64,000 nucleotides of DNA. Source: Escherichia coli (lineage in GTDB: Bacteria; Pseudomonadota; Gammaproteobacteria; Enterobacterales; Enterobacteriaceae). This document shows positions 55,590 through 60,816 of this stretch, piece after piece. Within the stretch, counting starts at the first letter, position 1; every line of letters starts with the position of its first letter. The translations under genes and the position numbers were made by a program. A model generated the notes under the pieces. That model was not told the origin of the DNA and ran no database searches. It worked only from the letters and a program-made list of their open reading frames with translations. Location of the stretch: NCBI RefSeq assembly GCF_045037415.1, contig NZ_CP173438.1; one strand, given 5' to 3'.

Positions 55590-55687
55590 GCCGGATGCGG
55601 CACAAACGCCTTATCCGGCCTACAAAAGTTTGCAAATTCAATAGATTACAGAATTCATGTAGGCCTGATAAGCGAAGCGCATCAGGC
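55590..55687. repeat. REP pair (BIME)
   Basis: gccggatgcggcacaaacgccttatccggcctaca and gtaggcctgataagcgaagcgcatcaggc. Confidence 0.8.
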
Positions 55688-57789: not shown

Positions 57790-57870
57790 AAATACTCCCG
57801 CTATCAACTGACGGTAGTATAACGGAAGCAAATCATCTGCAATGCATTAAGCAGCAGGCAAATTGAGGAT

Positions 57871-57937
57871 AAAAAAAACCCCCACATCATGTGGGGGAAG
57901 ACAGGGATGGTGTCTATGGCAAGGAAAACAGGGTTTA
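57871..57937 (-). ncRNA. cpxQ: probable CpxQ sRNA (processed cpxP 3'UTR) with rho-independent terminator
   Basis: Region immediately downstream of the cpxP stop ends in hairpin ccccacatgatgtggggg plus T-tract on the minus strand (plus-strand 57871..57897); exact 5' end not determinable from sequence. Confidence 0.45.
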
Positions 57938-58438
57938 CTACTGGGAACGTGAGTTGCTACTACTCAATAGCTTCAACGATGAACTTTTTTGCCATTGCGT
58001 CACGTCGCGCAACTGCTCCATTCGTTGTTGATGTTTCTCGTTTAAAACCGCTTGCTGCTCCGGCGTTAACAGGCGATACATTTGGTTGCGGACTTTTGCC
58101 ATCTCAACCTGACGAGCAATTTGCTCATTCGCCATTTTTTCTGCCTGTGCGCGCACAGCGTTTTCATCAAAATTTTCTGCGGTGACAAGGCGATGCATTG
58201 TCTCCAGTTCGCTAACATTAACAGGAGGCTGTTCGTGCCGGGCCTGTTGCATAAGATCTCGCATCTGCTGACGCTGATGTTCGGTTAAACTTATGCCGTC
58301 GAACATATGGCTCTGCGTACTGCGCTGCGTAAGTTCTTCACCCGGATGCCAGTTATCGCCTGAACCGACTTCAGCAGCGTGGCTTAATGAACTGACTGCC
58401 AGCGTTGAGGCCATGACGGCAGCGGTAACTATGCGCAT
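57938..58438 (-). CDS. cpxP: periplasmic Cpx pathway inhibitor/adaptor CpxP
   Basis: Track ORF trimmed to [39 protein letters not shown] (166 aa). Confidence 0.95.
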
Positions 58439-58517
58439 CATTTGCTCCCAAAATCTTTCTGTCGCGATTCAACGATAGAGAGTTTACGATTCAGGCTGCA
58501 AACATGCGTCAGGGGGT

Positions 58518-58532
58518 GTAAAACAACGTAAA
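58518..58532. promoter_or_regulatory. CpxR-P binding site in divergent cpxP/cpxRA promoter region
   Basis: gtaaaacaacgtaaa matches the GTAAA-N5-GTAAA CpxR consensus. Confidence 0.7.
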
Positions 58533-60679: not shown

Positions 60680-60816
60680 GCCTGATGCACTACGCTTATC
60701 AGGCCTACAAAACCTGTTGAATTTATGGGTTTTGTAGGCTGGATAAGGCGTTTACGCCGCATCCGGCATTTGAGCAGGATGCCTGATGCGACGCTGATAG
60801 CGTCTTATCAGGCCTA
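60680..60816. repeat. BIME cluster of three REP elements
   Basis: gcctgatgcactacgcttatcaggcctac; gtaggctggataaggcgtttacgccgcatccggca; gcctgatgcgacgctgatagcgtcttatcaggcctac. Confidence 0.85.

Follow-up and report, generated by a model that had tools for sequence, protein, structure and literature searches.

Does the short interval that follows the cpxP stop codon in Escherichia coli simply end an mRNA, or does it also release a small RNA acting on other transcripts? The 3' UTR of E. coli cpxP has been reported to yield the small RNA CpxQ, with Skp and CpxP levels lowered and skp repressed (PMC4817254). CpxQ is excised by RNase E aided by Hfq and covers nearly the whole cpxP 3' UTR, its region being the best conserved part of cpxP (PMC9438474); it binds Hfq (PMC4817254; PMC9438474) and represses nhaB, skp, agp, ydjN, fimA and cfa (PMC9438474; PMC5736990). 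We analyzed a 64,000-nt stretch of an E. coli chromosome (hereafter, the window), in which the original prediction, made from the letters alone, had placed a probable CpxQ sRNA within the cpxP 3' UTR.

Results

The interval downstream of cpxP matches the K-12 cpxQ gene

The window carries pfkA, fieF and cpxP on the minus strand and, divergently, cpxR and cpxA on the plus strand, the identities of the neighbors CpxP, FieF and CpxR being confirmed. The parental gene, cpxP, spans 58438 to 57938 on the minus strand in the list of open reading frames and encodes 166 aa; its product scores 215 bits against the CpxP profile NF007687 (cut-off 160) and is 100% identical to the CpxP region of MG1655 by tblastn. 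The stop codon, TAG, occupies positions 57940-57938.

In MG1655 (NC_000913.3), an ncRNA gene, cpxQ (b4716, 'small regulatory RNA CpxQ'), is annotated at 4106330-4106387, nine bases past cpxP. Transferred to the window, this annotation places the mature 58-nt CpxQ (UUUUCCUUGCCAUAGACACCAUCCCUGUCUUCCCCCACAUGAUGUGGGGGUUUUUUUU) at 57871-57928 on the minus strand. Over the 111 bases aligned around it, the window and MG1655 differ by a single mismatch, at 57887 in the loop of the terminator, where the window has an A and K-12 a C; thus, 57 of the 58 nt of CpxQ, including the entire 31-nt core described below, are identical to K-12 CpxQ and lie at the same position. The proposal that this 3' UTR contains CpxQ is therefore borne out, and so is its alignment to the E. 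coli sRNA. The A variant predominates in E. coli, with at least 99% identity to the CpxQ of the window in 4,192 of 5,424 records, and it is also found in the sampled genomes of Citrobacter, Salmonella, Escherichia albertii and Enterobacter.

The published E. coli CpxQ (2016, PMC4817254) has the same locus (after the cpxP stop codon and upstream of fieF), strand and length of 58 nt, the same terminator architecture, the same CpxR-controlled parental gene and the same full seed and core. K-12 CpxQ thus departs from that of the window at one terminator-loop base only (C versus A, 57887). Overall, this stretch is almost certainly the cpxQ gene of E. coli, encoding a CpxR-driven, RNase E/Hfq-processed sRNA of 58 nt: its location, anatomy and conservation are read directly from the data presented here, and the processing, Hfq dependence and targets come from published experiments on a near-identical sequence.

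Anatomy and predicted fold of CpxQ

Read on the minus strand, the 3' end of cpxP is ...CCCAG TAG, followed by UAAACCCUG UUUUCCUUGCCAUAGACACCAUCCCUGUCUU CCCCCACA-UGA-UGUGGGGG UUUUUUUU or, with the hairpin written as one block, UAAACCCUG UUUUCCUUGCCAUAGACACCAUCCCUGUCUU CCCCCACAUGAUGUGGGGG UUUUUUUU. Beginning with the base next to the stop codon and ending with the final U of the tract, this segment measures 67 nt (57937-57871), which is the span that had been assigned to CpxQ from the letters alone. Its 3' end is that of the sRNA; its 5' end is 9 nt too long compared to the K-12 annotation, in which these 9 nt (UAAACCCUG; 57929-57937, minus strand) are cpxP 3' UTR and separate the stop codon from the first base of CpxQ. 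According to the same annotation, CpxQ begins at G/UUUU, between 57929 (G) and 57928 (U). The sequence CCCUG-UUUU around this point is kept in Enterobacteriaceae, Erwiniaceae and Yersiniaceae, and not in Morganellaceae.

The sRNA itself is composed of three parts. The first, CpxQ nt 1-31 (UUUUCCUUGCCAUAGACACCAUCCCUGUCUU; 57898-57928, minus strand), is a conserved single-stranded core that contains the 5' seed and a CCAUCCC loop. Within it, both the minimum free energy fold and the RNAalifold consensus predict a small stem-loop (stem-loop 1) of AGACA and UGUCU arms closing the CCAUCCC loop (CpxQ nt 14-30; 57899-57915, minus strand). Note that its pairs are nearly invariant, so that covariation can neither support nor refute this predicted stem; one compensatory change, from C-G to U-A, is present in Serratia sp. 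DD3. The second part is a Rho-independent terminator hairpin (CCCCCACA UGA UGUGGGGG; 57879-57897, minus strand), for which the terminator scan gives 8 pairs, 6 of them GC, a 3-nt loop and a T8 tail. [quoted passage not shown] A U-rich 3' tail is the usual Hfq-binding module for this class of sRNAs. The strong hairpin and U-tract that had been noticed on the minus strand after the cpxP stop codon are thus present exactly where they had been placed, as an 8-bp stem and eight U residues. The whole 67-nt span (57871-57937) folds with a free energy of -17.4 kcal/mol, corresponding to z = -2.35 relative to shuffled sequences.

CpxQ would be expressed from the cpxP promoter

We then considered where transcription of CpxQ starts. 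The intergenic region between cpxP and cpxR harbors a predicted binding box for CpxR-P (GTAAAACAACGTAAA; 58518-58532, plus strand), and no other site in the 64-kb window matches GTAAA-N5-GTAAA exactly. We take this motif to be the CpxR box consensus, presumably driving the cpxP-cpxQ transcript from the cpxP promoter. With an exact box and a divergent cpxR-cpxA in place, the sequence features point to CpxQ expression under the control of CpxR through the cpxP promoter.

Some sRNAs located in 3' UTRs are instead transcribed from a promoter of their own, as is MicL/SlrA (PMC5736990), and CpxQ could likewise be an independent gene, with its promoter in the terminal part of cpxP just as that of MicL lies in cutC, rather than a processing product. 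However, the minus strand displays no sigma-70-like promoter from 57930 to 58440, which covers the cpxP 3' region; the literature assigns CpxQ to the cpxP promoter and to RNase E cleavage (PMC9438474; PMC5736990); and the 5' end of K-12 CpxQ is a U, a poor initiating nucleotide (PMC10250213). We consider an independent promoter very unlikely.

Transcription from the cpxP promoter followed by processing would then proceed as follows. CpxR-P would switch on the cpxP promoter, and the cpxP mRNA would run to the intrinsic terminator and its tail (57897-57871). RNase E, together with Hfq, would cleave 9 nt past the cpxP stop codon, at the G/UUUU step (57929/57928), and free a stable, Hfq-bound sRNA of 58 nt carrying a 5' monophosphate. 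Its unpaired 5' part of ~31 nt would pair with the nhaB, skp, cfa, agp and fimA mRNAs, repressing their translation or promoting their decay, and CpxQ would in this way limit damage to the inner membrane during envelope stress.

The CpxQ core is conserved throughout Enterobacterales

To sample the locus independently of the sRNA sequence, we selected one genome per species with a degenerate pattern for a conserved CpxR peptide, located cpxP beside cpxR by tblastn and read the sequence downstream of each cpxP stop codon. The CpxQ element is present in 98 of the 100 loci having enough sequence, from Escherichia, Citrobacter, Salmonella, Klebsiella, Enterobacter, Serratia, Yersinia and Rahnella to Erwinia, Pantoea, Photorhabdus, Xenorhabdus, Proteus, Providencia, Arsenophonus and others. 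Its 31-nt core, UUUUCCUUGCCAUAGACACCAUCCCUGUCUU, is exact in 80 of these 98 species and within at most one edit in 92. Loss of the seed region, which would have spoken against CpxQ, is thus the opposite of what these genomes display. In the same loci, the identity of the CpxP protein to its E. coli counterpart drops to ~37-50% (tblastn).

We compared the different parts of the locus by their mean identity to the window over the 93 comparable loci. This identity is 0.99 for the 31-nt core and 0.81 for the terminator. Outside CpxQ, it is 0.64 over the final 90 nt of cpxP and 0.55 over the 50 nt that follow the sRNA, with a shuffle baseline of 0.56. The terminator behaves differently from the core. 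A hairpin precedes the U-tract in all 58 distinct homologous sequences, built from 27 different 5' arms and with free energies ranging from -7.4 to -17.7 kcal/mol when each sequence is folded separately, and a run of at least five T follows it in 98/98 homologues. As the hairpin is kept in every variant in spite of these 27 arms, the stem is maintained by compensatory changes: the terminator stem is conserved as a structure and not as a sequence. Note that RNAalifold, run on a MAFFT alignment of 43 variants, recovered only three terminator pairs, since stem lengths and loops differ among variants and the stems are therefore mis-registered in the alignment.

These patterns bear on the simplest reading of the locus, in which it would comprise only the cpxP 3' UTR and an intrinsic terminator before fieF, with no trans-acting RNA. 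A hairpin and a U-tract right after a stop codon are what any terminator looks like. Yet a terminator alone would not require an unpaired stretch of 31 nt that stays 99% conserved when both the coding sequence beside it (64%) and the terminator stem (81%, 27 arms) drift. Moreover, regulation has been observed in K-12 upon deletion and over-expression for a sequence that differs at one loop base (PMC4817254, PMC6755755, PMC10250213), and regulation of targets by ectopic expression is already published for K-12. That the interval acts as a terminator only is thus extremely improbable, and nothing in its sequence argues against its identity as CpxQ.

Several loci depart from the common pattern. 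No recognizable CpxQ core was found downstream of two of the 100 cpxP-like loci, one from an uncultured Enterobacteriaceae MAG (L068) and one from Xenorhabdus thuongxuanensis (L084), the cpxP-like gene of the latter being possibly a paralogue. Hafnia psychrotolerans (L104) keeps the AUCCCUGUCUU half of the core, and its 5' seed has diverged to UUUUCAUGUCAUAGUC. In Yersinia artesiana, Y. proxima, Y. rohdei and Y. aleksiciae (L008, L093, L111 and L115), the in-frame stop codon of cpxP is the TAG within the CpxQ core (CCAUAG), so that the cpxP coding sequence appears, from the reading frame, to overlap the first ~15 nt of CpxQ in these four species. Lastly, one assembly of Serratia sp. DD3 has four contigs with cpxR-cpxP copies (L094, which is short, L095, L096 and L097); the last three carry identical and unusually diverged CpxQ cores (UUUUCCUUGCCAUAAUACCAUCCCUAUUUU), which include the compensatory change in the small stem mentioned above, and these copies may have been duplicated by the assembly, or the locus may truly be multi-copy.

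The Rfam family Hrs1 appears to be modeled on the wrong strand

An Rfam scan had been proposed as a check of the CpxQ assignment, and it did not return CpxQ: with Rfam 15 and gathering thresholds, no match was obtained at the CpxQ site, and the nearest family is a sub-threshold match to Hrs1 on the opposite strand. In a permissive scan, this best match (RF02628) covers 57871-57943 on the plus strand with 44.5 bits, compared to a gathering score of 56.4, and E = 1.5e-7; permissive matches to NsiR1, RyhB and OmrA-B were rejected as chance look-alikes of the terminator. Elsewhere in the window, naRNA4, a REP-derived nucleoid-associated RNA, matches above its Rfam gathering score downstream of cpxA (60737-60814, plus strand; 82 bits), and ES036/CssrF is barely above its cut-off just past the 3' end of pfkA (55625-55666, plus strand; 37.9 versus 37.6 bits).

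Taken at face value, the orientation of the Hrs1 match would imply a plus-strand functional RNA running antisense to the 3' UTR of cpxP. But beyond its score below the gathering threshold, such an RNA would open with A8 followed by a hairpin, and the scan finds for it neither a promoter nor a terminator. The RF02628 consensus itself opens with A7 and then a hairpin, i.e. the reverse complement of a terminator. The family does pass its threshold in Erwinia persicina and E. aphidicola (82.7 and 72.8 bits), again antisense to cpxP; these Erwinia matches lie at positions 2770-2844 of locus L052 and 1298-1373 of locus L014. In E. amylovora, however, the paper that defined Hrs1 describes a 74-nt, Hfq-dependent RNA with a Rho-independent terminator, detected on Northern blot and located between cpxP and fieF, with the orientation of these two genes (PMC4070566, Zeng and Sundin 2014). 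Since the matches are antisense to cpxP while this paper puts Hrs1 on the cpxP strand, RF02628 appears to be modeled on the wrong strand, as the reverse complement of the transcript. Failing the Hrs1 threshold therefore says nothing against the identity of CpxQ, and we attach practically no probability to a plus-strand RNA.

Hrs1 and CpxQ thus have in common their location between cpxP and fieF, their strand, their dependence on Hfq and a Rho-independent terminator. They also share the blocks CCUUGCCA and AUCCCUGUCU. Although Hrs1 was described as 74 nt long and specific to Erwinia, compared to 58 nt for E. coli CpxQ, it is the Erwinia counterpart of CpxQ. In the RefSeq records, no feature is annotated beneath the 58-nt CpxQ match, which is probably explained by this state of Rfam.

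Complementarity between the CpxQ core and published targets

The 5' end of CpxQ is described as the seed for nhaB and cfa (PMC6755755). For nhaB, regulation by way of a site in the coding sequence is conserved in E. coli, and the pairing site found in the translation-initiation region of Salmonella nhaB is not (PMC10250213). We looked in MG1655 targets for uninterrupted runs of pairing with CpxQ nt 1-31, using 200 shuffled 31-mers as a control. In the nhaB coding sequence, positions +299 to +310 form 12 pairs with CpxQ nt 7-18, ~2 nt from the published site, a length reached by 16/200 shuffles. The Shine-Dalgarno region of skp (-17 to -7) forms 11 pairs with CpxQ nt 3-13 (24/200 shuffles), and the long 5' UTR of cfa (-135 to -128) forms 8 pairs with CpxQ nt 4-11 (188/200 shuffles). 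These runs are compatible with the published sites; they are not significant relative to shuffles and carry no evidential weight on their own. Whole-target RNAduplex predictions, which allow large internal loops, could not tell the real seed from shuffles either, 46/100, 6/100 and 60/100 of which scored as well.

The translation-initiation region of MG1655 nhaB (-16 to -6; L123) also displays a run of 11 nt, with two G:U pairs, against CpxQ nt 1-11. As shuffled seeds often give runs of such lengths, this one may be due to chance.

The 3' part of cpxQ is an attachment site for P2-like phages

The 58-nt CpxQ query matched 6,097 places in 5,423 genomes, three of them on 'plasmids'. One of these 'plasmids' is a circular P2-like phage genome of 32.3 kb, in which an exact 45-bp segment (L122, 4001-4045) lies ~110 nt from the integrase gene. 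In strain 23556, a 32-kb P2-like prophage, extending from integrase to ogr, is inserted between cpxP and fieF and flanked by two exact direct repeats of the same 45 bp (L126, 1556-1600 and 33687-33731). The additional places are such prophage att repeats, and the possibility that they represent a second chromosomal copy of cpxQ was rejected. By comparison with the phage and prophage copies, the 45-bp attB core of WPhi/L-413C-type P2-like phages corresponds in the window to 57868-57912 (minus strand), i.e. to CpxQ nt 17-58 and 3 nt beyond. It is single-copy in the window, and the site is therefore empty in this strain.

The attachment site of WPhi has been known for about two decades. Assuming an offset of 1,977 bp between MG1655 sequence versions, position 4104392 becomes 4106369, which corresponds to nt 40 of CpxQ. 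The former position, an MG1655 coordinate, is all that is reported of the location of the WPhi and L-413C site (PMC3448106), and the genome paper on E. coli W names 'cpxP-fieF' for Wphi1 (PMC3032704). We found no link between the WPhi site and CpxQ in the searchable literature on CpxQ with attB or prophage integration.

Occupancy of this site is frequent. The junction between cpxQ and phage DNA is found in 794 of 5,426 complete E. coli genomes (~15%), a figure that agrees with the 837 genomes having an interrupted cpxP-fieF interval. The core is carried by 62 phage records, among which the matches listed include P2-like phages (Escherichia phage P2 and Peduovirus P24B2) and phages of Salmonella, Yersinia and Enterobacter. 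Beyond E. coli, a P2-type integrase gene lies 160-235 nt from the beginning of the CpxQ core in at least eight other species: Serratia sp. Ag1, Erwinia sp. OLFS4, E. rhapontici, three Photorhabdus and two Providencia (L072, L098, L119, L041, L073, L070, L005 and L074). These integrases are 57-71% identical to that of the E. coli prophage, the loci being too short to show a second att repeat, and their position suggests that the 3' end of CpxQ may be used as an attachment site in several genera.

Could the use of the site by phages, rather than the function of an sRNA, account for its conservation? The 45 bp at 57868-57912 are indeed an attB core, occupied in the 794 genomes counted above. However, phages exploit a conserved host sequence and do not impose its conservation; conservation is highest in 16 nt (57913-57928) that the att core does not cover; and the part duplicated by the phage takes in the terminator stem, where variation between genera is greatest. 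Conservation imposed by the phages thus has a vanishingly small probability, and the roles as an sRNA and as an attachment site coexist. Overall, the last 42 nt of cpxQ and 3 nt beyond are probably a landing pad for WPhi/L-413C-type P2-like phages, which carry an exact copy of this segment, so that in a lysogen the 3' two-thirds of CpxQ would be supplied by the phage, and the extreme conservation of the sRNA would make it a site available across the whole order, similar to tRNA and tmRNA genes.

Discussion

The locus downstream of cpxP in this E. coli chromosome is thus, with very high confidence, that of an sRNA that is already known and well studied, and the finding is in this respect an ordinary one. 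SdhX, SroC and NarS are, as is CpxQ, Hfq-dependent sRNAs that RNase E cuts from the 3' end of an mRNA, share its terminator and act by base pairing (PMC9438474). Their parental genes, seeds and regulons differ from those of CpxQ, whose parental mRNA is monocistronic and which, set against these sRNAs, occupies nearly all of the 3' UTR.

Two aspects only go beyond the textbook: the apparent strand error in the Hrs1 model and the presence, partly within cpxQ, of a widely used attachment site of P2-like phages. As for the first, automatic annotation misses cpxQ, an Rfam scan being falsely negative in E. coli and calling the antisense strand in Erwinia. As for the second, genes for structured RNAs are also the attachment sites of phage 186 (tRNA genes) and of Fels-2/SopE-phi (ssrA), similar to cpxQ. 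The P2-like phage at cpxQ carries the 3' part of the RNA gene, and integration rebuilds an intact gene, following the same logic as at tRNA genes and ssrA (PMC3448106). The cpxQ site differs from these in that the target is the 3' part of an sRNA derived from a 3' UTR. Frequent insertion of P2-like phages in cpxQ matters when the cpxP-fieF region of other strains is interpreted. As to the gene itself, CpxQ is a textbook case of an sRNA derived from a 3' UTR, with no novelty as a finding, and constitutes the non-coding arm of the Cpx response to inner-membrane stress.
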